From an uncultured Opitutales bacterium (GTDB taxonomy: Bacteria; Verrucomicrobiota; Verrucomicrobiia; Opitutales; Intestinicryptomonadaceae): DNA of 32,000 nucleotides. Shown one piece after another: positions 466-25,871 of the stretch (the stretch's first letter is position 1; each line of letters starts with the position of its first letter). The stretch spans positions 78,418-110,417 of the forward strand of contig CAKUIA010000006.1 in NCBI GenBank assembly GCA_934660865.1. Direction: 5' to 3'. The notes below the pieces were generated by a model. The model saw only the letters and a list, made by a program, of their open reading frames with translations. It was not told where the DNA came from and made no database searches. The position numbers and the translations under genes are program-made.

Positions 466-878
466 AATACCTTCTCGACCTAAACCAGACGCTTGTCGAC
501 CGCGAGAAAGACGCGCCGAGAATACGACCGTTTGAGCGTCAAATAGAACGCGAGACATACCGCCAGTGGCTCGTTGAAATCTTGCGGGATAGCTATGTAA
601 TCCTGATAACGGCGCGCCCCGTAAAATACAAACAAATGACGCTCGAACGGATTTTGGCTCTCACAAATTGGCAGCCTCGGGAAGCATATTTCGCGGAAAT
701 AAAAACGCTCCCGCACCTAAAAAAAGAATATCTCTTGCGCAAATACATACTTCCAAGATTTAAGCCCGACGAACTTTTCGGAATAGAAAGCAACCCCAAA
801 ACCCGCACGATATATTCAAATTACGGAATTGCGTCCGCTCCCGCCATCGACGAAAACGGCGTTAAAATATCGCTTTAA
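462..878 (+). CDS. HAD-like fold protein, paralog A (138 aa), variant catalytic motifs
   Basis: N-terminal LLDLNQTLV resembles HAD motif I (DxDxT) with Asn in place of the second Asp. ILITAR resembles motif II. GIESNPKT sits where the acidic motif IV is expected. Clear paralog of 3032..3466. Confidence 0.6.
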   Translation: MKYLLDLNQTLVDREKDAPRIRPFERQIERETYRQWLVEILRDSYVILITARPVKYKQMTLERILALTNWQPREAYFAEIKTLPHLKKEYLLRKYILPRFKPDELFGIESNPKTRTIYSNYGIASAPAIDENGVKISL

Positions 879-904
879 TTTTGACACTTCCGCCGTTATA
901 TATG
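878..904 (+). promoter_or_regulatory. ATTTTGACA-N15-ATG motif copy (a)
   Basis: TTGACA at 881-886, a pyrimidine-rich 15-nt spacer with no Shine-Dalgarno, ATG at 902. It directly follows the TAA of the upstream gene. Confidence 0.6.
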
Positions 905-1540
905 GCAGAAGACAAAGCACGCATTTTGGCGGACGGAATTGAAGTTTGGTGCGCCTACGACAAACTCGTAAAGGTTGACGAACTTATTCCCCACCCGAAA
1001 AATCCCAACACCCACCCGCAAAACCAGATAAAGATTCTGGCGCAGAATATCCGCTACCACGGTTGGCGGCACCCGATTGTGGTTTCAAAACTTTCTGGCT
1101 ACATTGTGGCTGGACACGGCAGACTCGAAGCCGCGAAAGAATTGGGCGTTTCAATCGTCCCCGTAGAATTTCAAAAATTTTCTTCCGAAGACAACGAACT
1201 TGCCGTTCTTGTCGGCGACAACCGCTTGGCGGAGCTTTCGAGCATAGACCTAAACGGGCTTCAAGACATCGTAGACGGTTTCAAGGAGACGAGCTTCGAT
1301 ACAATCTTGGCAGGTTTTGAACCAGCCGATTTGGACGCTCTGCTTGACGAAAAAACTCCCGATTTTGAAGACGAAGCCGAAAGGGAGCTTACCCAATCGG
1401 AAGTTACAATTCAGGCTGGGAACTATCGATTCCGCATAAGTCAGGAAGATTTCGGTGTATGGATTGACAAATTAAAGCAGGAAGTCGGCTTCGACAAGGA
1501 ATCGGTAATTGCCGAACTTCGCAGGAGGCTTTCCATATGA
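902..1540 (+). CDS. ParB-like N-terminal (nuclease/Srx-like) domain protein
   Basis: IPHPKNPNTHPQNQIKILAQNIRYHGWRHPIVV...VAGHGRLEAAKELG matches the ParB-like domain commonly found in phage ParB and methylase proteins. Start taken at ATG 902 rather than the track's TTG 881, because of the recurring motif. Confidence 0.8.
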   Translation: MAEDKARILADGIEVWCAYDKLVKVDELIPHPKNPNTHPQNQIKILAQNIRYHGWRHPIVVSKLSGYIVAGHGRLEAAKELGVSIVPVEFQKFSSEDNELAVLVGDNRLAELSSIDLNGLQDIVDGFKETSFDTILAGFEPADLDALLDEKTPDFEDEAERELTQSEVTIQAGNYRFRISQEDFGVWIDKLKQEVGFDKESVIAELRRRLSI

Positions 1541-3048
1541 TAAAAATTGAGCCTCTTTCGGCGGTAAACCCGTCGACCTACAACCCGCGAACCGCCGACC
1601 CGAAGCGGCTTGATTTGATTGAGCTTTCGCTTCGCAAATTGGGATTCATTGCGCCGATATATGCCGACGCAAACGGCGAAATTCTTTCGGGGCACCAACG
1701 CCATTTTGTGGCAACGCGAATGGGCGTAAAAAACGTTCCAGTTTTCAGGATTCCGCCGATGGAATTGGAGAAGCGCAAGGCGTTGAACATTGTCTTTAAC
1801 CGCGCCACTAACGACGGCGACATTTGCCAGACACCAGAAAAGGCTAAGCGCATTCTGGAAAGTCTAAATCTCTCGGAACTCGCCGAAAATATTCAAGACA
1901 AGGAGTTGGAGAGCAGAGACTTTTTCAGATGCGCCTACCCTGCGAAGGTGTCGGTTGCAAAACTTTGCAGGATAAATTCGGGACGATGGATTCAATACGC
2001 AAAGAGCATTGCCAGAACACTTCGCAAGGCTGGAATTGTTATGCCGATTGTCTGCACGCCAGACGGCAAAGTTATAAACGGAATCGGAAGACTCGAAATG
2101 CTTGCCGAACTCAAAGTAGATACTTGCGATGTGGTCTACATTTCCGAAGACGAGGCGAAATTTGCCGACGCTATGATGAACCTGCTTACGATGGAGTTCG
2201 ACATTCACACGCGCTACGCCGATTTGCTCCGCTATAATTCGTTCCGACGCGCCCGCAGAGTTCGCGAAGAATTGGGACACGGCTTTGTGTTCGCCGTTCA
2301 CGGGAATAAGCCCTGCCACAGTTTCGATATTTTCGATAAGTCGCAACAGGCGAAATGGCGCAAGGAGCACGGAAATTCAATTCTCGACTTCGGCGCGGGA
2401 CACCTTACGGAGACGAACATTTTGAAGTCTGCGGGCTTTGATTGTGTTCCGTTTGAGCCGTATCACATAAGCGTTTCCGAAATCGACAAGGAAAAGTCGC
2501 TTGAGATTTCGAGGGAATTTCTAAACGCCGTCGCAAATGGCAAGGAATTTACAAGCATATTCATTTCAAGCGTGTTAAACTCAGTTCCTTTCGCAAGGGA
2601 TAGAGAACACATAGTTTGCATTTGCGCCGCGTTGTGTCGTCCGTTTACAAAACTCTACGCCTGCGCTTCGTCGACGGCAGAAACCGGTTATAGGCAGGTA
2701 AACGGCAAGGCATTTCATAATGAATCGAATGCGGGCAATATAGCGTTTCGCCTTGAATACGAATCGGGAGTTCGCATTGGCGACTTTCAGGACAAGCCGA
2801 AAGTCCAGAAATACCACACAAAAAAGGAATTCTACGAACTCTTTTCGCCGTTTTTTAGAAACATTCAGATTTCGGAAATGACGGGCAACGTAAACGCCAA
2901 ATGCGAAAACGTCAGACGCATTCCGTGGGAACGCCTCGAAGAAGCGTTGAGATTTGAATTCAATCTGCCTTATCCCGACGGCTCTCGTATGGGATTGGTA
3001 GACGAGGCAATTTCGGCATTCAAACACCGCTATGAAATACTTGGTTGA
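1537..3048 (+). CDS. ParB-like domain(s) fused to a class I SAM-dependent methyltransferase (503 aa)
   Basis: N-terminus has NPRTADPKRLDLIELSLRKLGFIAPIY...SGHQRHFVA (ParB-like). A second degenerate ParB-like stretch lies near residue 170-200 (INGIGRLEMLAEL). C-terminal half has ILDFGAGHL (SAM motif I) and VPFEPY (acidic residue after beta-2). GGAGG lies upstream and the ATGA overlaps the previous gene. Confidence 0.8.
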   Translation: MIKIEPLSAVNPSTYNPRTADPKRLDLIELSLRKLGFIAPIYADANGEILSGHQRHFVATRMGVKNVPVFRIPPMELEKRKALNIVFNRATNDGDICQTPEKAKRILESLNLSELAENIQDKELESRDFFRCAYPAKVSVAKLCRINSGRWIQYAKSIARTLRKAGIVMPIVCTPDGKVINGIGRLEMLAELKVDTCDVVYISEDEAKFADAMMNLLTMEFDIHTRYADLLRYNSFRRARRVREELGHGFVFAVHGNKPCHSFDIFDKSQQAKWRKEHGNSILDFGAGHLTETNILKSAGFDCVPFEPYHISVSEIDKEKSLEISREFLNAVANGKEFTSIFISSVLNSVPFARDREHIVCICAALCRPFTKLYACASSTAETGYRQVNGKAFHNESNAGNIAFRLEYESGVRIGDFQDKPKVQKYHTKKEFYELFSPFFRNIQISEMTGNVNAKCENVRRIPWERLEEALRFEFNLPYPDGSRMGLVDEAISAFKHRYEILG

Positions 3049-3466
3049 TTTAAACTATACGCTTGTTGGAAATTCCCCGAGATGGGGAGAACCGCGCATT
3101 ACGCCGTTTTCAAGGCAGATTGAGCGGGAGACATACCGCCAGTGGCTTGTGGATTTCTTGCGGGATAAATACGCAATCCTCATTACTGCGCGACCTGCCA
3201 AATACAAAGAACAAACGCTTGCGAGGATTTTCTCTCAGACAAATTGGCACCCGCAGGAAACATATTTTGCGGAGATTTCCGCTACTCCACCCGAAATCAA
3301 AGAAGACCTATTGTTGCGGTATATCTTCCCGAAACACGGCAAAAATGGCGCGGATTTCTTCGGCATTGAAAGCAATCCGAAAACGCGGGCAATGTATGGA
3401 AAACATGATATAGAATCGCTATGTTTTGCCGATTTTAAGAAACAAACCGTTGACAAATTCGGATAA
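3032..3466 (+). CDS. HAD-like fold protein, paralog B (144 aa)
   Basis: Shares MKYL(L/V)DLN.TLV, RQIERETYRQWLV, ILITARP.KYK, TNW.P.E.YFAEI and FGIESNPKTR with 462..878. Includes an identical 20-nt run, gagacataccgccagtggct. Overlaps the end of 1537..3048 by 17 nt. Confidence 0.6.
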   Translation: MKYLVDLNYTLVGNSPRWGEPRITPFSRQIERETYRQWLVDFLRDKYAILITARPAKYKEQTLARIFSQTNWHPQETYFAEISATPPEIKEDLLLRYIFPKHGKNGADFFGIESNPKTRAMYGKHDIESLCFADFKKQTVDKFG

Positions 3467-3478
3467 AAGGAAGAGATT

Positions 3479-3649
3479 ATGGGCATGACAATGATAGCAA
3501 CACAGACAGAAGAAGAAATCCAACGTCAAGTGCGCGTTATCAGAGATGCCGCGCGGATTATTCGCCGTAGTCGGAGTAAGACCGACGCTTTTTTAAGGGC
3601 TATCGACCCAGATCTTGATAAACGTAAGAAGGCGAAGAAAAGTAAATAA
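3479..3649 (+). CDS. small basic hypothetical protein (56 aa), not in the ORF track
   Basis: Hand-translated: MGMTMIATQTEEEIQRQVRVIRDAARIIRRSRSKTDAFLRAIDPDLDKRKKAKKSK. AAGGAAG Shine-Dalgarno lies 8 nt upstream. The stop abuts the ATG of the next gene (TAAATG). Confidence 0.4.
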   Translation: MGMTMIATQTEEEIQRQVRVIRDAARIIRRSRSKTDAFLRAIDPDLDKRKKAKKSK

Positions 3650-4297
3650 ATGAATTCTTCGCTCATACTTACTGGCTATCACGGTTGCGATATAACTACG
3701 GCATATGACGTTGTTCTGGACGGACGTTTGAATCCGAGTCGAAACACATACGACTGGCTTGGGAATGGCGTTTATTTTTGGGAAGACGATATTGAAAGAG
3801 CCTATGACTGGGCAAAATACGTTTCGGCGAATCCCAAACTTTTTCACAACAAAATAGAACATCCTTGTGTTGTCGGCGCGGTAATCGAGTTGAAAAACCA
3901 TCTTGATTTGACTATTTCAAGCGCAAGGCAGGTCGTAAGAGAAGCATACAACAACATTTCGGAAATCTACGCCGAAAAGGGTTTGGAATTGCCCAAAAAT
4001 CGCAAATCGTCAAAAGGCGATGACTATTTGAAGATTCGCGAACTCGACTGCTTGGTTATAAATTCGATAAACGAGTTTAGAAAAGCCAAGAAAGAACCGC
4101 TTATTGATGTCGTTCGAGCTCCGTTTTTGGAGGGTGAACCTCTATACGCAGGGGCTTCTTTTATGAACGAGACTCATATCCAAATTTGCGTAAAAGATCT
4201 CTCCGCAATTAGGGGATATTTTATTCCGCCGCAATTCAAGAGTATGTTTAAGAACGCAAAAATTCCGAATTGGGATAAGGTTCTCGGGGAATATTAA
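3650..4297 (+). CDS. DUF3990-like protein (215 aa)
   Basis: GYHGC...LGNGVYFWEDDIERAYDWA and the later THIQICV resemble, from memory, the DUF3990 pattern (YHGS...FGxGFYxT...A..WA...THQI). Confidence 0.55.
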   Translation: MNSSLILTGYHGCDITTAYDVVLDGRLNPSRNTYDWLGNGVYFWEDDIERAYDWAKYVSANPKLFHNKIEHPCVVGAVIELKNHLDLTISSARQVVREAYNNISEIYAEKGLELPKNRKSSKGDDYLKIRELDCLVINSINEFRKAKKEPLIDVVRAPFLEGEPLYAGASFMNETHIQICVKDLSAIRGYFIPPQFKSMFKNAKIPNWDKVLGEY

Positions 4298-4323
4298 ATT
4301 TTGACATTCCGCCGTCTTGTATG
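4298..4323 (+). promoter_or_regulatory. ATTTTGACA-N14-ATG motif copy (b)
   Basis: TTGACA at 4301-4306, spacer ttccgccgtcttgt, ATG at 4321. The spacer is nearly identical to copy (a). Follows the TAA at 4295-4297. Confidence 0.6.
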
Positions 4324-5016
4324 GAATTGCATACGGACGACAGGATTATTTCGCGACAGAGCAACTGGGTGTTCGACGAACACGTCGCGCCCGAATTCGA
4401 CAAGCACGTCAGAAAGAGCGTGCCCAATTACGTTCACGTTCAGGATTTGGCGGAGACATTTTCCGACTGGTTCACATACCCCAATTCGACTGTAATCGAC
4501 TTCGGGGCTTCCACAGGCGAAACCCTGCGCAGGATAAAACGCCGCCATTCGAAAACGATCCACCTCATAGGCTACGACAATTCGCAGGCGATGATAAATC
4601 AGGCGAAAACAAAAGGCGTAGACATCATTTTTGCCGACCTCGAAAAGCCGTTTGTTCTGCCCAATTTTTCCTACGCAGTTTCGCTTTACACATTGCAATT
4701 CCTGCGCCCAGACGCGCGGAACGCGCTGTTAAAGCGCATATTCCACAGCCTTGAAAATTGCGGCGGAATGTTTGTCGTCGAAAAAGTTCTCGGCTCAACA
4801 TCGCAAATGCAGGACATTTTGCAACAGCTCTATTGGGAAATGAAGGCAAAGAACGGCTTTTCGTCAGAACAAATCATCAACAAGGCGAAAGCCCTGCGCG
4901 GGTGTATGTATCCCAAAACCGTAGCCGACAACGAAGCGGAATTCCGCGCAATCGGGTTCAATTCGGAAATAGTTTTCAAAGAATCGCAGTTCTGCGGTTG
5001 GCTGCTTACGAAATGA
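4321..5016 (+). CDS. CmoA-like SAM-dependent methyltransferase / carboxy-SAM synthase family (231 aa)
   Basis: NWVFDEHVAPEFDKHVRKSVPNY, VIDFGASTG, YTLQFLRPDARNALLKRIFHSLENCGGMFVVEK and the C-terminal FCGWLLTK parallel E. coli CmoA ([59 protein letters not shown]), recalled from memory. Confidence 0.7.
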   Translation: MELHTDDRIISRQSNWVFDEHVAPEFDKHVRKSVPNYVHVQDLAETFSDWFTYPNSTVIDFGASTGETLRRIKRRHSKTIHLIGYDNSQAMINQAKTKGVDIIFADLEKPFVLPNFSYAVSLYTLQFLRPDARNALLKRIFHSLENCGGMFVVEKVLGSTSQMQDILQQLYWEMKAKNGFSSEQIINKAKALRGCMYPKTVADNEAEFRAIGFNSEIVFKESQFCGWLLTK

Positions 5017-6794
5017 AGCTTCTTCGGGATATTCTCAAAGACGCTTGGACGCCCGCCGACCGCCGAGAGCCTTGGCGTTGGTGCGAAGACCATATAAAAA
5101 GCATTCCGTATTCGCCGCTTCCAGGACCGTTCAGAAGCGAAAACTCGCCGTGGATTCGCGAAGTTATGGAGGCAATCGTTGACCCGAAAATCCGCCTTGT
5201 CTCGATTATCGCCGCCGTCCAAAGCTCGAAGACTACAAGTCCCGAGCTTACGCTTTGCTACATAATAGCCAACCTCCCAGGACCTTGCCTTTGGCTCGAC
5301 CAGACGGACGAAGACGCAAAAGACGAGTCGGAAAGCCGCCTGCAAAAGCTTTTTGAGAGCTGCGAGCCGGTAAAAAAGCTATTTCCAAAGAACAAAAATA
5401 AACAGCGCAACTGCACAATCCACTTTTCAAACGGAATGACGCTTTGGCTGCTGGGAGCGTATAACAAGACCAATCTCCAACGCCGTTCAATCCGCTGGCT
5501 TTTCGGAGACGAAACTTGGCGATGGCCAGTCGGACATATGGCGGAAGCGGAGGCAAGAACTACGGCTTTCGGGTGGCTCGGCAAATGCGTGTTTATGAGT
5601 CAAGGCGGAGAGGAGAACGACGACACCCACCGCAAATTTGAAACAACCGATATGCGCGAATGGCACTACAAGTGTCCCAAATGCGGCAAATACATTCCCT
5701 ACAAGTGGGAAAACATCGAGTGGGACGACGACTGCAAAGACGAAAACGGCGAATACGACTTTTCAAAAATCAACCATTCAACAGCCTTGAAATGTCCCGA
5801 ATGCGGGGAGTATTTTGAGGATTCCGACAGAATGAGGCGCATTCTCAACAAGGACGGAAAGTTTATCGCGCTCAATCCGAATGCTTCAAAAGAAAACGTG
5901 GGCTTCCATTGGAATGCGCTCGCTTCGATGAGTTGGGGCAAGCTTGCCGAGCTTTACCTTCGCGCGAAAATTGCCGCAAGAAAGGGCGACAGCTCTTTGC
6001 TGCAACAATTCTACCAGAAACGCCTTGCTCTTGCTTGGAGGGAATTTGCCGAAGACTACCGCCTTGAAATCGCCTCTGGCAGCTATAATTCGGGGGACGT
6101 TTGGGATGAGGAAGCGGGCTTCAACAAGCTCGGTGAAATCATCGCCCCGCCTTTTGCCGAAAACGAGGTTATCGCGCCGCTTCGCATAATGTCGGTTGAT
6201 GTTCAGATGAACTGCTTTTACTTGGTTGTCCGCGCTTGGAGCATTAACGGTTCGAGTCGTCTTCTATGGCACGAAAAGGTACTGACGTGGGAAGACATCG
6301 AGGAAATCCAAAAGCGTTTTAAAATTTTGGACAACCTTGTATTTGTCGACGCGGGGTATAATTCGTTTGAAGTCTACAAGCATTGCGGGGAGCGGAATTG
6401 GATTGCGCTTATGGGCGACAACAGGGCGAACTTCTTTCACAGACTTCCGAACGGCAAGACGGTTTTGCGCTTTTACTCTCCCGTAAAGCACATATTTATT
6501 TCGCGCTACGTTAAGTGCCGTATGCACTTTTGGAGCAACCTCAACGTAAAAGACACTTTGGCGAGAATCAGGCGAAACCAGAATCCTGCCGACGGCGCAA
6601 CTTGGGAAGTGCCGACGGATATTTCCGAAGACTACTTAAAGCAAATGGAGTCCGAACACCGCATTAAAAAGGGCAACTCGTGGATATGGGAGCAAATCGG
6701 CAACCGCCCCAACCACTACCTCGACTGCGAAGCTATGAACTGCGCAGGAGCGTTGATGTTGAAGATTGTGGGGAACAATGGTTTATATAGTTAA
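5013..6794 (+). CDS. terminase large subunit, GpA (lambda-like) family
   Basis: Walker-A-like AAVQSSKTT and paired zinc-ribbon motifs CPKCGK...CPECGE, as in GpA-family terminases. Size about 593 aa. Position immediately upstream of gpW-like and portal genes. Start taken at ATG 5013, which overlaps the stop of 4321..5016. Confidence 0.85.
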   Translation: MKLLRDILKDAWTPADRREPWRWCEDHIKSIPYSPLPGPFRSENSPWIREVMEAIVDPKIRLVSIIAAVQSSKTTSPELTLCYIIANLPGPCLWLDQTDEDAKDESESRLQKLFESCEPVKKLFPKNKNKQRNCTIHFSNGMTLWLLGAYNKTNLQRRSIRWLFGDETWRWPVGHMAEAEARTTAFGWLGKCVFMSQGGEENDDTHRKFETTDMREWHYKCPKCGKYIPYKWENIEWDDDCKDENGEYDFSKINHSTALKCPECGEYFEDSDRMRRILNKDGKFIALNPNASKENVGFHWNALASMSWGKLAELYLRAKIAARKGDSSLLQQFYQKRLALAWREFAEDYRLEIASGSYNSGDVWDEEAGFNKLGEIIAPPFAENEVIAPLRIMSVDVQMNCFYLVVRAWSINGSSRLLWHEKVLTWEDIEEIQKRFKILDNLVFVDAGYNSFEVYKHCGERNWIALMGDNRANFFHRLPNGKTVLRFYSPVKHIFISRYVKCRMHFWSNLNVKDTLARIRRNQNPADGATWEVPTDISEDYLKQMESEHRIKKGNSWIWEQIGNRPNHYLDCEAMNCAGALMLKIVGNNGLYS

Positions 6795-8020
6795 ATAATT
6801 TCTCCTCGAAAATAATCTTTTATTATTTTTATATATTTATTTGGGATTCCTAGCCTTTCTCTAAACAAATTTTTCACAGGTACAGGATTTGGATTTAATA
6901 TGATTATATTTGGATATTTAGTCTTTTTGCAAAAAGCCTTTTTTAATAAATCAATTGCTCTTATATCAGTGATGGGGAAAGAGTATCCAATTACATATAT
7001 TGATTCTGCTTTACTTAAATCAGATTCAGCATATTCCCATAAATTTTTAAATAATTTGCCCCAAAAATTATAACTTTTATTTTTGACTGGAGGGATAATC
7101 AGTGGAGTACTTGGCATTCCATCACTAGGATAATTACTTTCAGGAATCCAAGGAAATTTCGGTCTTACCCTGATAATAAGCCGATCTTTAGGTGCTGTTT
7201 TTCCTTTGTCTGATAAAATATTTGGGGGATAATATCCCATAGAAAAAGGAGCATATCCTTCCATATATCTACCCGCGTACGCAGGATAAGGTTTAGTTGC
7301 GTATTCATATATCCAAACTGAATCATTTGGAGATTCTTGTATTAGTTTAAAATCTTTTGCTTCTTGATCATAGTACATAGGAGAAGTGAGCCAATTTGTT
7401 GAGCCATGTAACTTTATTAATTTTGGGGATTGTTTGAAGCTGTTTTGAGGCAACAGCCATTTATCTCGATATATACCACAAGGCGAAAAACCATATCCAA
7501 AGTCTGTTTCCCAATCAGTATCTTCTTGTAAGGCTCGATCCAATAAAGTATCCCAATTAAATGTTATTATAGTATCATCTGTATTTATTTTTTTTAAAAA
7601 TAATCTATGTGCTTTTGATGTTGGTCCATTTTGAATTTCATTTATAATCGATGAAAAAAAATAAACCAATTGTTGATAAGTTTTTGTCAATATAAGCAAC
7701 TCGCTGGAAATATGTTCGCAATTTTGATCCTTTTCAATTAAGGTAAGCATTTTATATTCAATCGCAGAGTGAATTTTCTCAATATCTAAATCTCCTTTAA
7801 AAACTGATTCGATAGGAACATTTCTGGTCTTATGTAAATAATTCACGATGTCACCGATTATAACCCAAGGGTTTTGTGATATATTTAATTTTTCAAAGGT
7901 AGAAAAAACCTCTGTTGCCAATGGCATTTTTTGACCAGATAAGGATTCACCATAAGACTTAGATGCTCCAGCTCCCAATATATATACATTCATTTCATTA
8001 TTTAAGTTCAATGGATACAT
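6791..8020 (-). CDS. SIR2-like (SIR2_2 type) domain protein, stand-alone
   Basis: YILGAGASKSYG (N-terminal glycine motif), IITFNWDTLLD (TTNYD-like, Asn retained), LIKLHGSTNW (catalytic His) and YVIGYSFPITD. AT-rich, on the opposite strand to the phage genes. Start at ATG 8020 or 7993; the track's 8068 start would run through the gpW promoter motif. Confidence 0.8.
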   Translation of the reverse strand: MYPLNLNNEMNVYILGAGASKSYGESLSGQKMPLATEVFSTFEKLNISQNPWVIIGDIVNYLHKTRNVPIESVFKGDLDIEKIHSAIEYKMLTLIEKDQNCEHISSELLILTKTYQQLVYFFSSIINEIQNGPTSKAHRLFLKKINTDDTIITFNWDTLLDRALQEDTDWETDFGYGFSPCGIYRDKWLLPQNSFKQSPKLIKLHGSTNWLTSPMYYDQEAKDFKLIQESPNDSVWIYEYATKPYPAYAGRYMEGYAPFSMGYYPPNILSDKGKTAPKDRLIIRVRPKFPWIPESNYPSDGMPSTPLIIPPVKNKSYNFWGKLFKNLWEYAESDLSKAESIYVIGYSFPITDIRAIDLLKKAFCKKTKYPNIIILNPNPVPVKNLFRERLGIPNKYIKIIKDYFRGEII

Positions 8021-8033: not shown

Positions 8034-8063
8034 ATTTTTTTGACAAGTTTTATTCTTATCATG
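8034..8063 (+). promoter_or_regulatory. ATTTTTTTGACA-N15-ATG motif copy (g)
   Basis: TTGACA at 8040-8045, 15-nt spacer with no Shine-Dalgarno, ATG at 8061. Confidence 0.55.
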
Positions 8064-9730: not shown

Positions 9731-10544
9731 CATTTTTCTAAACGGCATTTGCAGACCGTGGAATATCCACGCTGGAACGTTTCTTGCGCTTTCGCTTAGA
9801 ACACTTGCGGAGGCTTCGGGCGGAAATTCACTCGAAACTTGGCGGGAGAAATTCTCGCAATTCGTCCCGCAACGAAGCCCGCTTTCAATAGACGAAAACG
9901 GAATTGCGCATATTTCAATTCACGGAACGCTTTTCAACAAGGAAGCCCCGTATTTTGTGGCGGGCTACGGCGGAACCGACTACGCGGAAATTCTGCGCGA
10001 CATCGAAACCGTTTCCGAAAAAGCGAAAGCGATTTTCCTGAAAATAGATTCTGGCGGCGGGCACGCCTGCGGGAACGACAAAGTGGCAAAAGCCGTTTCG
10101 CAGTGCGCAAAGCCCGTATTCGCCTACACCGACGGAATGTGCTGCTCGGCGGCATACGCGATAGCTTCGGGCGCGTCCTACATCTGCGCTTCGGCAGATT
10201 CAACCGTTGGCAGTATCGGAACAATTCTTCCGCTAATGGATGTTTCGGGGCTTTGGCAGTCGCTCGGGATAAAGCCCGACTACATCACAAACCGCGAGGG
10301 AACGCTCAAAACGGCGGGCTATCCGCCGAGCCAGAACGAAGCCGAACGCGCCGCCCTGCAAGCCGAAACGCAGGAGTATTTCGAGCTTTTCAAATCGCAC
10401 GTTTTGGCAAACAGGCAAATTGCAAATGATGATATGCGCGGACAGGCGTTTGTGGGCGCTGATGCGTTAAAGCACGGACTTGTAGACGAAATCTGCGACG
10501 AAAAAACCGCCTACAATAAACTCAAAATTTTGACAACTTGCTAA
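9720..10544 (+). CDS. S49 (SppA/ClpP-like) prohead protease
   Basis: IFLKIDSGGGHA, YTDGMCCSAAYAIASGASYICASADSTVGSIG (serine nucleophile context of the S49 family). Follows the portal as lambda gpC does. Confidence 0.85.
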   Translation: MTNNIFLNGICRPWNIHAGTFLALSLRTLAEASGGNSLETWREKFSQFVPQRSPLSIDENGIAHISIHGTLFNKEAPYFVAGYGGTDYAEILRDIETVSEKAKAIFLKIDSGGGHACGNDKVAKAVSQCAKPVFAYTDGMCCSAAYAIASGASYICASADSTVGSIGTILPLMDVSGLWQSLGIKPDYITNREGTLKTAGYPPSQNEAERAALQAETQEYFELFKSHVLANRQIANDDMRGQAFVGADALKHGLVDEICDEKTAYNKLKILTTC

Positions 10545-10552
10545 GAAGTATG
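10527..10552 (+). promoter_or_regulatory. ATTTTGACA-N14-ATG motif copy (f)
   Basis: TTGACA at 10530-10535, lying inside the last codons of the protease gene. ATG at 10550. Confidence 0.5.
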
Positions 10553-13695: not shown

Positions 13696-13721
13696 ATTTT
13701 GACATTCTGCTTTGCTATATG
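13696..13721 (+). promoter_or_regulatory. ATTTTGACA-N14-ATG motif copy (c)
   Basis: TTGACA at 13699-13704, spacer ttctgctttgctat, ATG at 13719. Confidence 0.6.
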
Positions 13722-15192: not shown

Positions 15193-15218
15193 ATTTGACA
15201 TCATACATGACTATAATG
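15193..15218 (+). promoter_or_regulatory. ATTTGACA-N15-ATG motif copy (h)
   Basis: TTGACA at 15195-15200, 15-nt spacer, ATG at 15216. An in-frame ATG also exists at 15207. Confidence 0.45.
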
Positions 15219-16118
15219 AAAAGGAAGTATAAAGTCGTATTAGGTCTTTTAGCGGCCTTTGGAGGGAAATTGTCCCGAAAGTACATGCAAAAGCTTGTAT
15301 TCTTGTTTTGCGAACGTAATGATTCTTCGTTGTTTACGTTCATTCCTTTTCGCTATGGGTGTTTTTCCGAAGAATTAGCAACCCTCCAAGAAAGTTTTAT
15401 TCAGGACGGATACTTGAAGAAAAACGAATTGTGGGAACTGTCAGACAAGGGAAGAAAACAAACCGTCGATATAGATCTGTTTGATTCGGAAGCCATAGAA
15501 AAATTAACTCGTCGTTTTGGAACACTTACAGAATCTGAAATCATAAAATATGTATACCAAACTCATCCGTATTATGCTATAAATAGCGTAATTTTGGATA
15601 AGATATTATCTCCAGAAGAGCAGAAACCGATACTACAGTTAAAGCGAAAATTAAAAAACGAAATAGACAACAAAAAAATTGTAAGTATCGGATATGAAGG
15701 ATACACAATAGACGATTATATAAAAATGCTTTTGGATAATCGAGTAAAAGTTTTATGTGATGTTAGAAAAAATCCAATAAGCCGCAAAAAAGGATTTTCG
15801 AAATCTGCTCTGTCATTTGCCTTGGAAAAATTGCACATAACTTACTATCATTTTCCCGAATTAGGAATTCCGTCAAACATGCGACAGAAGTTGGTTTCTC
15901 AGGAAGATTACGATAATCTTTTCTGTTTCTATGAAAAAAATATTTTATCTAAAAATTTTTCATACATAGAAGAAATTTCCTCTTTTCTTGACAAATTTGG
16001 AACGGTTGCGCTGTTATGCTTTGAAAAAAATCCTAATCAATGCCATAGGACGCGTATCGTTAATAGAATTCTTGAATACAGAGAAAACGATGTAAAGGCG
16101 ATTACGTCATGTCAGTAA
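15216..16118 (+). CDS. winged-helix-like N-terminal domain fused to a DUF488 domain
   Basis: C-terminal half has IVSIGYEGYTIDDYIKML..VKVLCDVRKNPISRKKGFSK..L...L....ITYYHFPELG ... ALLCFEKNPNQCHRTRI, which is the DUF488 pattern as I recall it. The N-terminus ends in DGYLKKNELWELSDKGRK, which is wing-like. AT-rich. Confidence 0.7.
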   Translation: MKRKYKVVLGLLAAFGGKLSRKYMQKLVFLFCERNDSSLFTFIPFRYGCFSEELATLQESFIQDGYLKKNELWELSDKGRKQTVDIDLFDSEAIEKLTRRFGTLTESEIIKYVYQTHPYYAINSVILDKILSPEEQKPILQLKRKLKNEIDNKKIVSIGYEGYTIDDYIKMLLDNRVKVLCDVRKNPISRKKGFSKSALSFALEKLHITYYHFPELGIPSNMRQKLVSQEDYDNLFCFYEKNILSKNFSYIEEISSFLDKFGTVALLCFEKNPNQCHRTRIVNRILEYRENDVKAITSCQ

Positions 16119-16939: not shown

Positions 16940-16966
16940 ATTTTTGACATTGTTCCCTTTTGTATG
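16940..16966 (+). promoter_or_regulatory. ATTTTTGACA-N14-ATG motif copy (d)
   Basis: TTGACA at 16944-16949, spacer ttgttcccttttgt, ATG at 16964. Follows the TAG at 16937-16939. Confidence 0.6.
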
Positions 16967-17326
16967 AGCAATCCATACAAACTAAGAGGGACAAAACAGC
17001 CTATTTCGTTCGGCGTTGAAAAGCTTGACGGCTATATTGTCGACGCAACCGAAGAGACTATCGAGGGCGAAGAGCTTGAAGTTGAAGACGAAAACAACAA
17101 CGTAGTTGCGCATTTTTCGGGCTTCGGTATTCGACACAAACGCACGGCAAGCGTGATTCCGCTTGTAGGAGCAACCGCGCCGCTTCCAGGAGATTCGTTT
17201 AAAATCGGCGAGAACTTCGAGTTCATCGTAAAGTCTGTTAAAAAATCCCGCGCCCGCAAGGACGTTGAAAAATGGGATTTGGAGGGCACATACTACCCCG
17301 AAGTTCCGATGGAGGTAATCGGGTAA
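16964..17326 (+). CDS. putative tail tube or other tail structural protein (120 aa)
   Basis: First gene of a unit ending in the tape measure gene. Assignment by position only. Confidence 0.4.
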   Translation: MSNPYKLRGTKQPISFGVEKLDGYIVDATEETIEGEELEVEDENNNVVAHFSGFGIRHKRTASVIPLVGATAPLPGDSFKIGENFEFIVKSVKKSRARKDVEKWDLEGTYYPEVPMEVIG

Positions 17327-17856
17327 TGGAAGACTTCTACGAAGCCTTTATAAATTGCTCGCACACGGCTTTGGGCAAACGCCTGAAGCCTTTTTGCTTG
17401 AAGCATTGTTTGTATTTGGAGGCGGTAAATTCGCCGATAATGCGCCTTGTAAACGGCGAGGAAGCGGAAATTTCCCGCCAAGATTTAGAGGTAGCCGTTA
17501 TTATTTGCTCGGCGGACGATATTCTAAAAAGCCTGAAACGCCCGTATCTTGGAATGAAATTCCATTCATACAGACGCGGATTAACGGCGTTTCTTTCGTA
17601 TCTGACGGACTTTGTTGCCGTCCCCGAACTCTGGGATAAAATCGATTCGGAAACCACGCTCAACGCACCTTGGATACTCTCGCGGGCTATGTTGCTTCTT
17701 TCAAAAACTTCGCTGAGGCTTGACGAGGTTTGGAATATGCCGCTTGGCGAGCTTCTCTGGTATTGCGCCGTGTTTGCCGAACAGGAGGGCGTGGCTCAAA
17801 TTCAGTCGGACACAGAAAAGCGCATAATCGAGGAAATTAAAAATGGCAACAAGTAG
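17326..17856 (+). CDS. hypothetical protein, tail-assembly-chaperone position (176 aa)
   Basis: TAATG coupling. Immediately precedes and overlaps the tape measure gene. No slippery heptamer found. Confidence 0.4.
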   Translation: MEDFYEAFINCSHTALGKRLKPFCLKHCLYLEAVNSPIMRLVNGEEAEISRQDLEVAVIICSADDILKSLKRPYLGMKFHSYRRGLTAFLSYLTDFVAVPELWDKIDSETTLNAPWILSRAMLLLSKTSLRLDEVWNMPLGELLWYCAVFAEQEGVAQIQSDTEKRIIEEIKNGNK

Positions 17857-19321
17857 CATTCTTGCAAAAATCGGGCTAAACTCCGCTGGGTTTAAGACTG
17901 GGCTGGCGCAGTGTCGAATGGCTGCGGGGAATTTTAAAAAGTCCGTCGGCGGTATGTTTTCGGGAATCGGGTCGCAGATTCTCGGGGCGTTGGGCGTGTC
18001 GGCGGGGATTGCGGGGATTTCCGCGTTCACTCAAAAGACAATCGAATTCGGCGGGCACGTCGAGGATATGGCAAACCAGCTGCGAATGGGCAAAAGCGAA
18101 TTTCAGGCACTTGCCTACACCGCAAAGCTTGCGGGTGTTGAAGAATCGAAGCTCGTCCAGACTCTGCAAACGCTCAACCAGCGCACGATTGACGCCTGCG
18201 ACGGCAACTACACCTACCGCGACGCCTTAAACCGCCTCGGCATAGACTTGAAGAATTTTGCCAACCAATCCCCCGAAAAGCGTTTTGAAATGTTGGGACG
18301 CGCCTTTAAAAATTCGGGCGAATCGCTTACGGCGTTAAACGACATTTCCACTATATTGGGGCAAAAGACCGCCCCGCAGCTTTTGGAGGTTTTGGATAAA
18401 GTGGCGACGCAGGGAATGGAAAGCATAACGCAGTCGGCAATCGAAGCCGGCAACGTTATGGACGAAGAAACGCTTGCCGCTCTTGCCCGCGCGGGAGACG
18501 AAATCGACAAATGGCAAAACCGAATCATAGTCGGATTCGGAGGGTTTCTCGCCGATATTGCTTCCGCAATCGGTCGGCAAAAATGGGGGCTTTTGATTGG
18601 TATGAAGTTTACCCAAGCGGGAGAATTTATCGAGGAGGCGCTGCGGGATATTTCAAACTACATACTCGCGGTGTTTTCGAGCGTGTTTAGATATATAAAC
18701 AGCGCGTTTTCGGGCTTTGTTGTTCCCATTCGCAACGTCTTTGTTTGGTTTATCGAGACTGTGGGGAACGCGTTGGGGAAGTTTGTTGGAATGTTTTCCG
18801 AGAGTTGGCAAAACGCGATAAATGGCGCGCTTGACGGCTTGCGAGAACTAAAAGACGAGGCAAACCGACTTTCCGCGAAAGACAAAAACAAAAGCTTCGG
18901 ACAGATTTTTGCCGAAGAAGTTTCCGATGCGTCGAATAGGAACAATTCGCGCAACCGCCAAAATTTGCTAACTTCGAAATCGGTTGATTGGTATAAAGAA
19001 CAGCTAAAATATGTAGAACAAGCCCGCGATGCCGAGAAGCAGTTGGCGGTTTCGGCGGAAAATGCGCGCAAGGCAAAATACCGAAAGGCGGACGAATCTC
19101 CCGAAATCAAAAAGTCGGCAAAAGAGCGGAAGCTCGAAAAGTCGCTCTCAAACCACAACGATTCGGCGCTTGCAAAAATCGGCGGAGGCGGACTTCTCGC
19201 AGCCCGCTACGACATCACCGCAAAGCAGCTCTCGGAATCCAAATGCCAGTCGAAACTTCTCCAAAAGATAGCCGAAAACACCGAACACCAGTCGGGAAAA
19301 TCGGAGCTGTTGATGAAGTAA
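17843..19321 (+). CDS. tail tape measure protein (492 aa)
   Basis: Gly/Ala-rich hydrophobic segment GIGSQILGALGVSAGIAGISAF, long helical Ala/Glu/Lys-rich regions, and position in the tail module. Confidence 0.7.
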   Translation: MATSSILAKIGLNSAGFKTGLAQCRMAAGNFKKSVGGMFSGIGSQILGALGVSAGIAGISAFTQKTIEFGGHVEDMANQLRMGKSEFQALAYTAKLAGVEESKLVQTLQTLNQRTIDACDGNYTYRDALNRLGIDLKNFANQSPEKRFEMLGRAFKNSGESLTALNDISTILGQKTAPQLLEVLDKVATQGMESITQSAIEAGNVMDEETLAALARAGDEIDKWQNRIIVGFGGFLADIASAIGRQKWGLLIGMKFTQAGEFIEEALRDISNYILAVFSSVFRYINSAFSGFVVPIRNVFVWFIETVGNALGKFVGMFSESWQNAINGALDGLRELKDEANRLSAKDKNKSFGQIFAEEVSDASNRNNSRNRQNLLTSKSVDWYKEQLKYVEQARDAEKQLAVSAENARKAKYRKADESPEIKKSAKERKLEKSLSNHNDSALAKIGGGGLLAARYDITAKQLSESKCQSKLLQKIAENTEHQSGKSELLMK

Positions 19322-19887: not shown

Positions 19888-19916
19888 ATTTTTTGACAAG
19901 CCGAATTCTTTATATG
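19888..19916 (+). promoter_or_regulatory. ATTTTTTGACA-N15-ATG motif copy (i)
   Basis: TTGACA at 19893-19898, 15-nt spacer, ATG at 19914. Confidence 0.55.
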
Positions 19917-20603
19917 CGGGTAAGATTGCATGACGGCGAGGTGTGTTTTTTGAGGGATTCGGGCGAGAGAATTGTCTCGGCGGATTCTGTCGCGACGTGT
20001 TCAGCCACTTGGTTTTGTTATCCGTATTCGGCGGCGCTTGCGCATTGCCCGATTGTAAACAAGTCTCCGCACCCGATTTGGTCGGATTTGTATTGCAAGT
20101 CGGTAGGCATTAAGCGGCACGGCGAAGGCGCGATAATAACCGCCCAATACGAGGGTTCGGAATTCGTCTGGGATTCGAACAAAGATTCCTCCGAAAACAC
20201 CGTCGAAGTTTCCTGCACGATGCGCGAAGAGCCGATAGAAAGCCACCCTGATTTCGAGAGATGGGCGGGAAGCCCAGACAAGCCCAACTGCGGAATATTC
20301 GACGACGACGGCAAATTCGTCGGCTGGAATTCCAAAACGCAGGGCGGCAAAATAATGGCGGGCGTAAAAAGCTACCTCGTGCCGTCGTATTCTGCGGCGG
20401 TAGGCTATATTTCAAGGGGAATGCCGAGCCTCGGCGGAATCGGCTCAATCGGCGGCGGCAGCGGCTTGCCCGCAGTCGGCGGAAACCGCCAGTGGATGTG
20501 CACGGGAATTTCCTACAACAAAATGGCTGACGGCAAATACAAAGTCTCCGTCACCTATCTTTTGAGCGGCCCGAACGGCTGGAATAAATACATATACAAA
20601 TAA
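19914..20603 (+). CDS. hypothetical distal tail protein (229 aa)
   Basis: Start set at ATG 19914. The track's 19647 start would overlap the antisense membrane gene. Gly-rich [17 protein letters not shown]. Confidence 0.5.
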
Positions 20604-20605
20604 AA

Positions 20606-22348
20606 ATGCTAAACGACATCGGAAACCAGAAACTGCCGCGATTCCGCGCAGGGCTACCGCTCTTGGAACAGGTAACGGCGGAACGGCTAAACGACATCTG
20701 CGCAATGATTGAAGCTTCGCGCCTGCAAAACGGCGTAGGATACACAATGAATAGAAGCGCGGGCGGAACTACGCTTACGATACTGGATACGCTGATAACG
20801 AAAAATTCCAAGGCGTGGCGAATCTCCTTCGGCGACGAATTCTCCGAAATGGAAAAGTCGATGCTCGCAGTCTACACGGCAAAAGACACCGAGGAATTGC
20901 CCGACATCAAGTTCCCCGATTCGGCTACAATCCGCTTCGATATCGAAAACGCCTTCAAAACTTTCCAAAAAACGCCCAAAAGCGGCGATGTCATCTGGAA
21001 CGAAACCGACGGCTTGCGCTATCTTGTCTTCTCCGAAAAGATTTTGAAAGACTGCGGAGGCGCGGTCGAAAAGGATTTTTACAGCATAAAGTTTTCGACG
21101 GGCGAAAAGGAAAACGCGAAAACTTTCTACGCGCTTTACGTCGGCGAACACCCGCAACAGCCTGCGGGCAGAACGCCGAGCCAGCCGATTGCGGGCCCTG
21201 CGGGCAGAGACGGGAAAGACGGCAAGGACGGTGAAAAGGGAGAAAAAGGCGACAAGGGCGATAAGGGGGACAAGGGAGACCGTGGCGAAAAAGGCGAGAA
21301 AGGCGAAACGGGTGATAAAATCGTCGAAAAGATTGTCGATAGCGGTGCGTATGACGACACCGAAATCCGCAACCAGCTTTCAAACTTAAAAGCCTTGTGG
21401 GACGAGCACAGCGCGCTAATCGCCGAACTCAATACGCTTACCAACGACGAACTTTACAAACGCCAACAGCTCGAAAAACGCGTCGACGAAATCGAATCGC
21501 AAATAAAGGCTATTGTGGAATCTCTGAAAGCCCTCGCCGATACCGACGAAAGCATAAAGGCGCAGATTTCGCAACTGTGGGCTGCTATCAACAACCTGCC
21601 CAAGGGCGAGAAAGGAGACCAAGGCCCAGTCGGTCCGCAAGGTCCTCAGGGAATTCAGGGGGAACGCGGGGAGAAAGGCGAAAAAGGCGATACGGGACCA
21701 ATGGGGCCGCAAGGTCCTGCGGGAGGAGGCGGCGGAACTCAAGGCCCGCAGGGCCCGAAAGGCGACAAGGGAGACAAAGGGGATAAGGGCGACACGGGCG
21801 CGCAAGGTCCGATGGGACCTCAGGGGCCTCGCGGCGAAAAGGGAGATTCCGCCGACACTTCCGCGCTTGCTTCGGCGGTCGCCTCGCTCGAATCGCGAAT
21901 GGGCAACATCGAAAATAGAATGTCTTCCGCAGAATCCGTAATGGCGAGTATGCGCCAAAACGTCGACTATGTGAAGCGCACGATTGATTCCGCCGTAAAC
22001 GTCGCCGTGATGGACGCAAACGGCAATCTCGCAACCCTCAAAGTTTTGCAGCACATCGACGGCGGCAACATTATGACCGACATTTACTATTTCGACCCGT
22101 CGACGAATATGATGAGCAAAACGCAGGTGTTTTCGACGGGGTCAAGGCAGGTCGATACGGGCTGGAAACCTACGAATATCCAGTTTGTTTTGCCAAACGG
22201 CGAAAGCGCGGAAATCACGATTCTTGCCGACCAAAACACTCTAAACAATCTGGGCGCGGCGTTCTATTCCGAACCCTGCGAGGTCTGCGACGGCGGCTCT
22301 TCCACCGTAAAATACTTCCTTGTAAAGTCGGGGGAAGGCGGCGAATGA
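20606..22348 (+). CDS. collagen-like repeat tail fibre protein (580 aa)
   Basis: Two Gly-X-Y blocks (residues about 197-238 and 334-414) separated by a coiled-coil-like segment. Non-repetitive C-terminal domain. Confidence 0.8.
21194..21319 (+). repeat. Gly-X-Y (collagen-like) coding repeat block 1
   Basis: [42 protein letters not shown]; reiterated ggcgacaag/ggngaaaaa triplet units. Confidence 0.85.
21605..21847 (+). repeat. Gly-X-Y (collagen-like) coding repeat block 2
   Basis: [81 protein letters not shown]. Confidence 0.85.
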
Positions 22349-22683
22349 TTCGGCTAAAATCCAAATGCTCCGACGACTGCTCGCAATGCGAGCCGAGCGT
22401 TATAGCGAGCTATACCACAAACGGCGACAACCCGACGTGGGATTTGACGCCGTATCAGGGCGACGGCGTCGGCAAGCCCGACGCGCTTTGGCGTTTGTAT
22501 GAGCTAAGCGGCTGCGTTGAATACAAGCGCGGGCGCATCGACGAAAACGGCAAACTTGAAGGATTGCCGAGCCAGTTTAAATCCAACTACACCTACGACG
22601 GCTATATGGAGCTTCAACAGGGCTGTCCCGATATTTGTTGCGACGACCTCTGGTGCGGCAACATCAAATGGCCCGAAAGTTAA
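22345..22683 (+). CDS. Cys-rich hypothetical protein (112 aa)
   Basis: ATGA coupling to the fibre gene. Nine Cys, including CSDDCSQC and [11 protein letters not shown]. Confidence 0.5.
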
Positions 22684-22686
22684 TTT

Positions 22687-23634
22687 ATGTTTGAATTCGA
22701 TAAAGGGATAAATTCGCATATGCCGTTTGTGGCGCGCGGTAATGCACCAGACTTCACGCCGAAGGCTTTTTGCTGTCTTAAAATCGGCGGCAAGTGGAAG
22801 CTTCACCACTATGAAAACGGCGAATGGAAGCGCGTTTATACAGGGCTTCCAGAAGACGCCACGGAATGTTCGCCCACCGCCGAACTTGTAGACGGCAGGT
22901 GGAGGATTTCGTTCATAGCGGGCGGACACGAAAGCGACAGGCGTTTTTATCTCTACAAGATTGACGGAATCGGCAACGTTCCCGAAAAGGTTGTCGCCGC
23001 AGATGTCGGGTTCGTTTTCAAGAACTGCATTGTCTACGGCGGGCGTTCTGGCGGGCTTTACATTGTCCGTGGCGGGAATATTCAAAAGCTGACATTTTCC
23101 GATGCCGAATACCTCTACCGCGTTTCATACAATCCCGACAACCCGAGCGAGTGGCTGATTTCGGGACAGACAAAGGCGGGCGGGATTTTTTCGCGCGTTT
23201 GCAATGTCTTTGCGGGGACTTTGCAAAGCCTTTGCGTGAACGGCAAGCCCGCCTACAAAGCGGCGTTGTTTAACGGCAGATGGTTTTACGCCGAGCGCGG
23301 CGAAAACGGCTTTGAAGACAGGCGCATTGTGGAGGCTGCGGAATTTACCAGAACCGATTTGGAGTTTGAAAAATCGGCAATTTTGGAAACTTTGGATACT
23401 TTGCCTACAACATTTCAAATGGTGGGAAAGTTTACAAAGGCAACCTACAGCTGGGCAAAATCGGGCTTCAAACTTGCCGACGAAACAGAACTTGCCAAAA
23501 GAAAATCAATCTGCAACAACTGCAACTTCTGGTATCCCACAGCCCGAATGGGACTCGGCAAATGCCTAAAATGCGGCTGCTCTTCCGCAAAACTAAAATT
23601 GGCTTCCGAAAAATGCCCAATAGGGAAATGGTGA
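22687..23634 (+). CDS. hypothetical tail-associated protein with C-terminal Cys4-type motif (315 aa)
   Basis: C-terminus is CNNCNFW...GKCLKCGCSSAKLKLASEKCPIGKW (zinc-ribbon-like). The body is repetitive and beta-rich. Confidence 0.5.
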   Translation: MFEFDKGINSHMPFVARGNAPDFTPKAFCCLKIGGKWKLHHYENGEWKRVYTGLPEDATECSPTAELVDGRWRISFIAGGHESDRRFYLYKIDGIGNVPEKVVAADVGFVFKNCIVYGGRSGGLYIVRGGNIQKLTFSDAEYLYRVSYNPDNPSEWLISGQTKAGGIFSRVCNVFAGTLQSLCVNGKPAYKAALFNGRWFYAERGENGFEDRRIVEAAEFTRTDLEFEKSAILETLDTLPTTFQMVGKFTKATYSWAKSGFKLADETELAKRKSICNNCNFWYPTARMGLGKCLKCGCSSAKLKLASEKCPIGKW

Positions 23635-23659
23635 TTTTGACACCCCAGCTTCTTGTATG
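23634..23659 (+). promoter_or_regulatory. ATTTTGACA-N14-ATG motif copy (e)
   Basis: TTGACA at 23637-23642, spacer ccccagcttcttgt, ATG at 23657. Follows the TGA at 23632-23634. Confidence 0.6.
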
Positions 23660-25870: not shown

Positions 25871-25871
25871 T

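Follow-up and report, generated by a model that had tools for sequence, protein, structure and literature searches.

A TTGACA hexamer at a fixed distance from late-gene start codons in Verrucomicrobiota prophages: a candidate phage-factor-dependent late promoter

What kind of signal is a hexamer identical to the sigma70 -35 consensus when it stands only 14 or 15 nt in front of a start codon? The question is raised by a 32,000-nt stretch from an uncultured Opitutales bacterium (contig CAKUIA010000006.1, positions 78,418 to 110,417), referred to below as the window, which is the late, structural arm of an Opitutales (Verrucomicrobiota) prophage, a temperate siphovirus of lambda-like type. Ahead of one block of genes after another, TTGACA recurs. 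A sequence-only reading of the window had drawn attention to nine such copies on the plus strand and had offered a Bacteroidota-type promoter box, a phage-specific promoter or a site for a phage regulator as explanations. The element was followed here through the window and related loci. Our leading interpretation, held tentatively and given somewhat less than an even chance, is that TTGAC(A) is the recognition element of phage-factor-dependent late promoters which would give leaderless or nearly leaderless mRNAs.

The nine plus-strand copies are all there as had been claimed, each with the ATG of a genuine gene 14 or 15 nt further on. Eight are instances of TTTTGACA, at 879, 4299, 8038, 10528, 13697, 16942, 19891 and 23635, and the ninth, at 15195, is TATTTGACA. 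One further TTTTGACA site lies on the minus strand of the window; the shuffle expectation is 2.2 +/- 1.35, and none of 100 shuffles reached the observed total of nine. The bare hexamer is not enriched (15 observed against 14.4 expected in the window); it is the placement of TTGACA, not its frequency, which is non-random. The spacer to the ATG is 14 nt for the hexamers at 4301, 10530, 13699, 16944 and 23637, and 15 nt for those at 881, 8040, 15195 and 19893. The open reading frames (ORFs) opened in this way have 85-737 codons, and wherever a PHROG family exists its alignment supports the chosen start, eg for the protein encoded from 15216 (residues 2-284 against profile positions 5-296) and for that from 4321 (residue 9 against profile position 6).

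None of the nine spacers holds a Shine-Dalgarno core, which bears out the earlier description of these first genes. Several internal genes have one (aggagg, 1537; taggaggag, 8315; aaaggag, 10955 and 12070), and others overlap the preceding gene instead. Copies had also been described as starting at the preceding stop codon, and this was seen at 881 (TAA), 4301 (TAA), 16944 (TAG) and 23637 (TGA); at 10530 the upstream stop codon is within the spacer and the motif lies within the 3' end of the protease gene. Copy 3 sits in a 40-bp divergent gap following a minus-strand gene. Together with a degenerate site at 25853, the nine copies divide the late arm into blocks of 1-5 genes (Table 1). The degenerate site is probably a member of the series, although its membership is uncertain because TTCACA as a class is at background level across the family. 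A minus-strand 'tenth copy', said to lie inside an invertible segment, does exist, but the ATG 3 nt on opens an ORF of 23 codons only and we do not count it as a member; no convincing inverted repeats were found around it which would define such a segment.

The family set was built by TerL alignment, which added 80 loci from viral contigs (TerL identity 63-95%, GC content 38-66%) to give about 90 related loci in all. The close relatives of the window phage are human-gut prophages of Puniceicoccaceae and Opitutales, and the wider relatives are prophages of Puniceicoccaceae/Opitutales and Verrucomicrobiales. Two related prophages, L001 and L003, are present in Puniceicoccaceae Marseille-Q1082. 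A hexamer was scored as occupying a functional position when it lay 13-16 nt upstream of an ATG or GTG opening an ORF of at least 60 codons. Across all loci this position is held by 228 of 381 distinct TTGACA hexamers (60%), compared with 1-5% for the 18 single-mismatch hexamers tested, except TTGACG and TTGACT with 13% each. Loci first judged to be free of the motif were found to have TTGACG-N13-ATG at the orthologous position after the terminase gene. In the GC-rich relatives the T-run and the TA are gone (ggTTGACA, cgTTGACA) and the spacer ends ggcATG, with TTGACA and its distance from the start codon kept. By this comparison the conserved unit is TTGAC(A>G,T) plus distance, not TTTG, and the T-run is local to the low-GC members, since the GC-rich ones lose it and keep the hexamer. 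Nothing is conserved upstream of the hexamer, there being no information content upstream of position -3. In L004, a distant TerL relative (57% identity), no motif was recognisable. In 24 of 154 cases the upstream gene terminates at the TGA contained in TTGACA, and in 18 of the 154 the upstream ORF runs through the motif to an ATGA overlap, so the hexamer is kept even where it is also protein-coding. At L035 9017-9028 a plus-strand and a minus-strand copy abut (TGTCAAagccgTTGACA), both with a divergent ATG after 13 nt.

The distance from hexamer to start codon is confined within narrow limits. Family-wide, 105 spacers are of 13 nt, 62 of 14, 26 of 15, 25 of 16 and 12 of 17, with a single case of 12 and only scattered values elsewhere, ie there is a hard floor at 13 and a short tail which has faded by 17. 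In the class with a 13-nt spacer, position 12 is G in 53 of 70 cases and position 13 a pyrimidine in 66 of 70, and the start codon, with A or G as its first letter, comes next. The N14 class has the same G-pyrimidine pattern moved by one position, and the N16 and N17 classes still have G at position 12 (13/17 and 6/8). Because the longest classes keep it there, this G is at a constant distance from the hexamer and is not tied to the start codon. A G-pyrimidine-purine step thus lies about 14 nt past the hexamer. A pyrimidine is found at -1 in 123 of 154 non-redundant starts; among low-GC members the count is 39/45, against 11/26 for non-motif starts in the window (Fisher p = 1e-4). Transcription usually starts in a Y(-1)R(+1) context, in Akkermansia as elsewhere (PMC4782308), and about 10% of Akkermansia start sites are leaderless (PMC4782308); as this genus belongs to the same phylum, the phylum can translate leaderless mRNAs. 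The floor and short tail are as expected if the 5' end of the RNA were fixed about 14 nt past the hexamer and never cut into the start codon. The motif genes share several traits of the leaderless signature (narrow distance, absence of a Shine-Dalgarno sequence, a pyrimidine-purine step across -1/+1), and both ATG and GTG serve as starts. In the 154 starts TANNNT is absent 6-8 nt before the start codon, and the stretch from -13 to -8 is C/G-rich.

Established promoter classes were compared with this geometry and set aside. An ordinary sigma70 promoter would use the hexamer as its -35 box, but no TAnnnT -10 box follows 16-18 bp on: at the equivalent positions, in codons 2-3, just 5 of the 154 starts have T at -12 and 27 have A at -11. 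A sigma70-type start would moreover fall 29-30 nt past the hexamer, inside an ORF which begins 13-17 nt past it. The sequence-only reading was right on this point. Its suggestion of the Bacteroidota TAnnTTTG (-7) box did not survive; the string is matched by 2/9 copies, there is no TTTG 19-21 bp upstream as partner, the host phylum is Verrucomicrobiota, and the T-run and TA are lost in GC-rich relatives. An antisense extended -10 element (TGTCAAAAT, minus strand) relies on the A/T run, which relatives do not keep. If the ATG or GTG provided the TG of an extended -10 element with a 17-bp spacer, N13 would put TG at -15/-14, but no -10 hexamer follows. The geometries of sigma54, extracytoplasmic-function sigma factors and T7-like polymerases have the wrong spacing, their second elements are absent, and no phage polymerase gene occurs in the regions seen. 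A Shine-Dalgarno-type site does not fit: the spacing is 13-17 nt rather than 5-10, and UUGACA is not complementary to CCUCC, the part of the 16S tail with which it was compared.

A simple sigma70/terminator scan gave nothing specific at the motif copies. Ordinary promoters do occur in the same phage: TTGACA-N18-TACAAT, with a Shine-Dalgarno leader, before a minus-strand gene, and TTGCGA-N17-TATTAT before the three-gene operon which ends at window position 878 (the counterpart in L001 is TTGCAG-N17-TAATAT). Since other genes of the same phage have such promoters with Shine-Dalgarno leaders, the motif genes form a separate class. The gene 97-465 is transcribed from an ordinary sigma70-type promoter directly upstream of the window. 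It encodes a conserved protein of 118-122 amino acids without assigned function, found in 16/37 related loci, with an invariant N-terminal HILCT..YEGRFQ core and a disordered tail ending KRRLGDL.

The point at which the series begins could be located because the same phage was recovered on a metagenome scaffold, L008, which extends the sequence by 9.5 kb on the upstream side (window positions become L008 positions on adding 9539). No motif occurs in the replication module, with its AAA_24, helicase and primase genes (L008 1-5829); copies are lacking throughout L008 1-6590, and in L021 1-8470, likewise the replication module, and the first copies on L008 are at 6596 and 7953. The proteins of 37 long loci were clustered to find genes linked to the motif series. 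One family, of 159-217 amino acids and represented by a 173-residue protein encoded at L008 6089-6610, outside the window, always comes after the primase, its gene being the last of the replication operon. A motif copy lies in, or just past, the 3' end of this gene in 10/10 loci which hold it. In 8/10 this copy is the first on that strand and the upstream replication genes have none; in L032 (1814) and L035 (16275) there is one more copy upstream. Homologues with about 30% identity occur in unrelated Prim-Pol/PolA elements of Verrucomicrobiales, where TTGACA-N13-ATG stands at the 3' end of the gene (L092, L095) or a copy precedes the gene (L097).

The family is unannotated everywhere. An AlphaFold model of the 173-residue protein (predicted local distance difference test score 81) has a C-terminal four-helix helix-turn-helix (HTH), which in structure comes nearest to NarL/GerE/LuxR DNA-binding domains and to the domains of sigma factors that bind the -35 box, with weak scores throughout (E > 0.3); a further weak match in the PDB is a mycobacteriophage immunity repressor (7r6r, E about 1). 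Aligned with E. coli RpoE by hhalign, the protein matches region 4 only, and Pfam gives marginal Sigma70_r4, MarR and HTH hits. To our eye its turn-helix G(I/V)T(K/R)AA.S recalls GVTRER of sigma70 region 4.2. We regard it as the best candidate for the reader of TTGACA because of the position of its gene at the early/late boundary and because its HTH appears to be of the type which reads TTGACA in sigma factors. The two remaining suggestions of the sequence-only reading, a phage-specific promoter and a site for a phage regulator, both fit, and with a candidate gene at the boundary of the series they may be one and the same thing.

Beside the second copy on L008, at 7915-7950 and about 1.6 kb upstream of window position 1, are two direct repeats of GGGAAATCGG and an inverted TTTCCCAC; three GGAACTT repeats at L001 3040-3072 are their counterpart. 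In both phages they lie directly upstream of the motif copy before an HTH, terminase-small-subunit-like gene. Their sequence differs between the phages while their position is conserved, and they look like cosB-type binding sites or operator sites.

In the mechanism we favour, a phage-encoded DNA-binding protein, with the 173-residue HTH protein as best candidate, would read the hexamer and direct host RNA polymerase to start about 14 bp downstream, at the A or G of the start codon or 1-3 nt before it. Each late gene block would thereby be expressed from a separate mRNA, leaderless or almost so; no Shine-Dalgarno sequence would be needed by its first gene, and later genes would use coupling or their own. 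We infer action at the level of DNA, transcription initiation as the source of the 5' end at the start codon, and reading of the hexamer by the candidate protein. Such a promoter would account for the near-invariance of the hexamer, the floor and tail of the spacing, the G-pyrimidine-purine step and the missing Shine-Dalgarno sequences. It would also account for the restriction of the motif to genes past the replication module, for the synteny of the series with the HTH gene, and for copies after divergent genes, of which there are three among the nine in the window, one of them in the 40-bp gap without room for another promoter. It accounts, though weakly, for the depletion of TTGACA off functional positions (79 and 35 observed on the two strands against 136 and 127 expected), a depletion which barely exceeds the spread of permuted-hexamer controls.

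Several observations weigh against this mechanism. We know of no bacterial polymerase geometry in which the sole element lies at -19 to -14; -10 boxes reach to -7 and -35 boxes to -30, and the stretch which would have to melt, -13 to -8, is C/G-rich. The candidate protein has no recognisable sigma region 2, and its matches in fold and sequence are all weak (E > 0.3). In L092 and L097 a copy precedes the first gene of the operon encoding the HTH protein, an arrangement which would require basal recognition by the host or autoregulation. Finally, L094, the locus of a distant homologue of the HTH protein, is without the motif. In this more distant phage, whose homologue is 30% identical, the region 2700-7920 has no TTGACA copies and a CAAGCAAGCA-like sequence is repeated right before many ATGs (eg 5003, 5707 and 7239), which may be a different gene-start signal.

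A hairpin near the start codon is also left unexplained, because a leaderless mRNA would not contain the spacer which forms its 5' arm. The spacer tends to be complementary to codons 2-6, an arrangement which leaves the start codon close to the loop. Non-motif starts have a mean hairpin z of +0.33, and motif copies in the window and close relatives average -1.63; over the whole family the motif mean is -0.69 and that of coding controls -0.21 (p = 0.002), and a strong hairpin (z < -2) is found at 16% of family copies. The pairing is clear at copy 2 (spacer with codons 2-6, z = -3.0) and copy 7 (z = -3.8), and no such hairpin is present at the window copies 8040, 10530, 13699, 15195 and 23637. 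Stems begin 1-2 nt past the hexamer and never include it. Orthologous sites use different stems, eg ccgtcttgtATG..catacggacg and gctatctgtATG..acagatagc, which suggests selection for pairing. Folding of sense versus antisense strands gave no discrimination between RNA and DNA structure. If the favoured promoter is correct, the hairpin could act only in read-through transcripts, eg by silencing an internal AUG or by stabilising the RNA. Among the orthologues of copy 5, L001 17323-17360 and L003 16850-16887 have a perfect G+C-rich hairpin, AGCCCAT..ATGGGCT, then TTTTTT; it resembles an intrinsic terminator and contains the start codon, and window copy 5 has lost the 5' arm.

The hairpin is the starting point of the strongest challenge, that UUGACA is an RNA-level signal in a polycistronic late transcript, read by a nuclease or an RNA-binding protein. 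Either a cut about 14 nt downstream, just 5' of the AUG, would yield processed leaderless mRNAs, or a factor would open or use the hairpin for Shine-Dalgarno-independent initiation, as Com of phage Mu does on mom. This would explain better than a promoter both the pairing of spacer with codons 2-6, by stems which differ between orthologous sites and spare the hexamer, and the many copies located a few nt past an upstream stop codon or in an ATGA-coupled junction. RNase E, besides, prefers RN/WUU, which G-Y/A-U-G resembles. We nevertheless consider it rather unlikely in either form. The strong hairpin is limited to the minority of copies given above; a promoter of their own would still be needed by copies in divergent gaps, and no such promoter is conserved ahead of them; the hexamer matches what sigma region 4 reads on DNA and an HTH protein is the linked candidate, both of which favour binding to DNA; and TTGACA is depleted on the antisense strand too. 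There is no Rfam match to the element, and upstream promoters which have not been seen would be required together with a further, RNA-binding factor.

Conventional thinking would instead make TTGACA a single -10-type box in the manner of T4 late promoters, with transcription starting 6-8 nt on, leaders of 5-9 nt without a Shine-Dalgarno sequence, and the C/G-rich stretch past the box as discriminator. High-information single elements without a -35 box are the pattern of phage sigma factors (T4 gp55, TATAAATA; phiEco32 gp36), the element is limited to late genes, and in GC-rich relatives the hexamer is the sole relatively A/T-rich island, followed by a C/G-rich block. However, the conserved pyrimidine-purine step is at position 13/14 and not at 6-8 nt, the upper limit of 17 nt and the hard lower limit of 13 are left unexplained, a start at 6-8 nt would cut the 5' arms of hairpins which begin at nt 1-2, and the candidate factor resembles the duplex-reading region 4 rather than the melting region 2; all told, this is distinctly unlikely. 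To see the copies as stoperator-like roadblocks, ie asymmetric junction sites in one orientation at which a phage protein stops or modulates the elongating polymerase, is improbable. Many same-orientation sites in very short junctions do recall stoperators, the L5 stoperator consensus contains TGTCAA, and the HTH has its weak match to an immunity repressor; but a roadblock needs neither a fixed 13-17 nt distance to the start nor a G-Y-R step, the sites are absent from the replication module, and the candidate gene ends the replication operon instead of being a divergent immunity gene. An ordinary host box, whether a sigma70 -35 with a downstream -10 or the Bacteroidota -7 box, we hold to be very improbable indeed. 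Its attractions are that TTGACA is the -35 consensus and that two window copies read TAATTTTG; the absence of a -10 hexamer at 16-18 bp and of an upstream -33 element, a start inside the ORF, the unconserved T-run and TA, a Verrucomicrobiota host and the ordinary -35/-10 promoters elsewhere in the same phage all speak against it.

The remaining gene content of the window was assigned by PHROG and Pfam searches (Table 1). The genes 462-878 and 3032-3466 are paralogues of unknown function (PHROG 32036, E 1e-31 and 1e-37), which flank the pair of genes for the ParB-like protein and the ParB-methyltransferase; their family is present in 9/37 related loci. PHROG, Pfam and NCBIfam gave no function for these two, for 97-465 or for a 206-residue protein encoded upstream of the window. 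With the ParB-methyltransferase as query, tblastn found only distant phages of other hosts, which were uninformative on the motif, and a megablast of 25 kb against phage records gave no match. A tRNA search found none, and Rfam gave no matching family. A 21-bp unit (TAGTGTTTTACATTTGTTTTA) is tandemly repeated at 13617-13661, in the divergent gap between the minus-strand gene 13314-13616 and motif copy 5, and may be an operator for the minus-strand gene cluster.

Table 1. Motif copies and assigned genes in the window (positions are those of the window; N, spacer nucleotides)
Feature	Positions	Strand	Context or basis
Copy 1, TTTTGACA-N15-ATG	879..904	+	before ParB-like gene 902-1540, first of a 5-gene block; upstream TAA 876-878
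Copy 2, TTTTGACA-N14-ATG	4299..4323	+	before methyltransferase gene 4321-5016, then large terminase 5013-6794
Copy 3, TTTTGACA-N15-ATG	8038..8063	+	before small gene 8061-8318, portal 8315-9730, protease 9720-10544
Copy 4, TTTTGACA-N14-ATG	10528..10552	+	before 10550-10954, then major head protein 10955-11848
Copy 5, TTTTGACA-N14-ATG	13697..13721	+	before 13719-14030, first of 3 genes; after three minus-strand genes
Copy 6, ATTTGACA-N15-ATG	15193..15218	+	before gene 15216-16118
Copy 7, TTTTGACA-N14-ATG	16942..16966	+	before gene 16964-17326, then tape-measure block
Copy 8, TTTTGACA-N15-ATG	19891..19916	+	before 19914-20603, then tail-fibre block; after a minus-strand gene
Copy 9, TTTTGACA-N14-ATG	23635..23659	+	before tail fibre-like gene 23657-25870 (737 amino acids)
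Probable degenerate copy, TTCACA-N13-ATG	25853..25874	+	before gene 25872-26132; missed by the sequence-only reading
'Tenth copy', TTGACA-N3-ATG	27531..27536	-	not a member
ParB-like protein	902-1540		PHROG/Pfam
ParB-N methyltransferase	1537-3048		PHROG/Pfam
Methyltransferase	4321-5016		PHROG/Pfam
GpA-type large terminase	5013-6794		PHROG/Pfam
Lambda-type portal	8315-9730		PHROG/Pfam
S49 protease	9720-10544		PHROG/Pfam
Major head protein	10955-11848		PHROG/Pfam
Tape measure	17843-19321		PHROG/Pfam
Tail fibres	20606-22348 and 23657-25870		PHROG/Pfam
Serine invertase	26838-27428	-	PHROG/Pfam

To our knowledge the gene-expression signals of Verrucomicrobia and their phages are almost uncharted. 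The paper describing GeneMarkS-2 makes no mention of Verrucomicrobia, and literature searches on the motif string and on the P1 Lpa late promoters gave nothing usable. The rule of hexamer plus distance fixes true start codons and transcription-unit boundaries in a large family of gut and environmental prophages, separates their early from their late genes, and points to a specific uncharacterised protein family as the possible late-gene switch. If the 5' ends do lie at the start codons, the element would work as a factor-dependent promoter both compact and portable, having its -35-type hexamer at about -16 and lacking a -10 box, and would be a natural case of a whole late regulon on leaderless mRNAs; it would be useful for the study of RNA polymerase repositioning and for expression tools in gut bacteria similar to Akkermansia. 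Neither leaderless mRNAs nor phage-specific late promoters are new in themselves. It is doubtful, though well worth entertaining, that the geometry itself is undescribed, ie that a small phage HTH protein resembling region 4 acts on a single TTGACA near -16, with a start 14 bp on and no -10, in a system which a wide group of Verrucomicrobia phages and Prim-Pol/PolA elements would have in common. We know of no described system which matches a -35-type hexamer placed 13-14 nt before starts family-wide without a -10 box, nor of one which matches the linked orphan protein.

Each of the nearest known systems shares part of this arrangement. The cluster A mycobacteriophage stoperators (the L5 gp71 sites) are likewise many, asymmetric, in one orientation, in short junctions and in a temperate phage, but the sites described here have a fixed distance to the start, belong to late genes only and are 6 bp long. 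Mu Com/mom also has a specific sequence directly 5' of a hairpin involving the start codon; here each genome offers a dozen targets, the hairpin is not consistently present and no RNA-binding protein was found. With the sigma70 region 4/-35 interaction and T4 MotA/AsiA the element shares hexamer and orientation, and the candidate has a region-4-like HTH (GVTR...), whereas the site is about 16 bp nearer to the gene start than a sigma70 -35 box and has no -10 partner. In contrast to the phage single-element promoters (T4 gp55, phiEco32 gp36, and the leaderless middle and late promoters of Thermus P23-45), the sequence here is the host -35 consensus and not a -10-like box, a -10 position does not agree with its distance should the ATG be the point where transcription begins, and the candidate factor resembles sigma region 4/LuxR rather than region 2; in common with them, it is a short, near-invariant element without a second box, found at many late genes and absent from early ones, with a linked candidate factor from the early operon in the present case. 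The promoters of leaderless genes in Actinobacteria and Deinococcus, and lambda PRM, have TANNNT ending 6-8 nt upstream of the start, where the present element is TTGACA ending 13-14 nt upstream and without a -10-like sequence, but the two are alike in that the element keeps a tightly fixed distance to the start, no Shine-Dalgarno sequence is present, a pyrimidine comes before the initiating purine, and ATG and GTG are both used.

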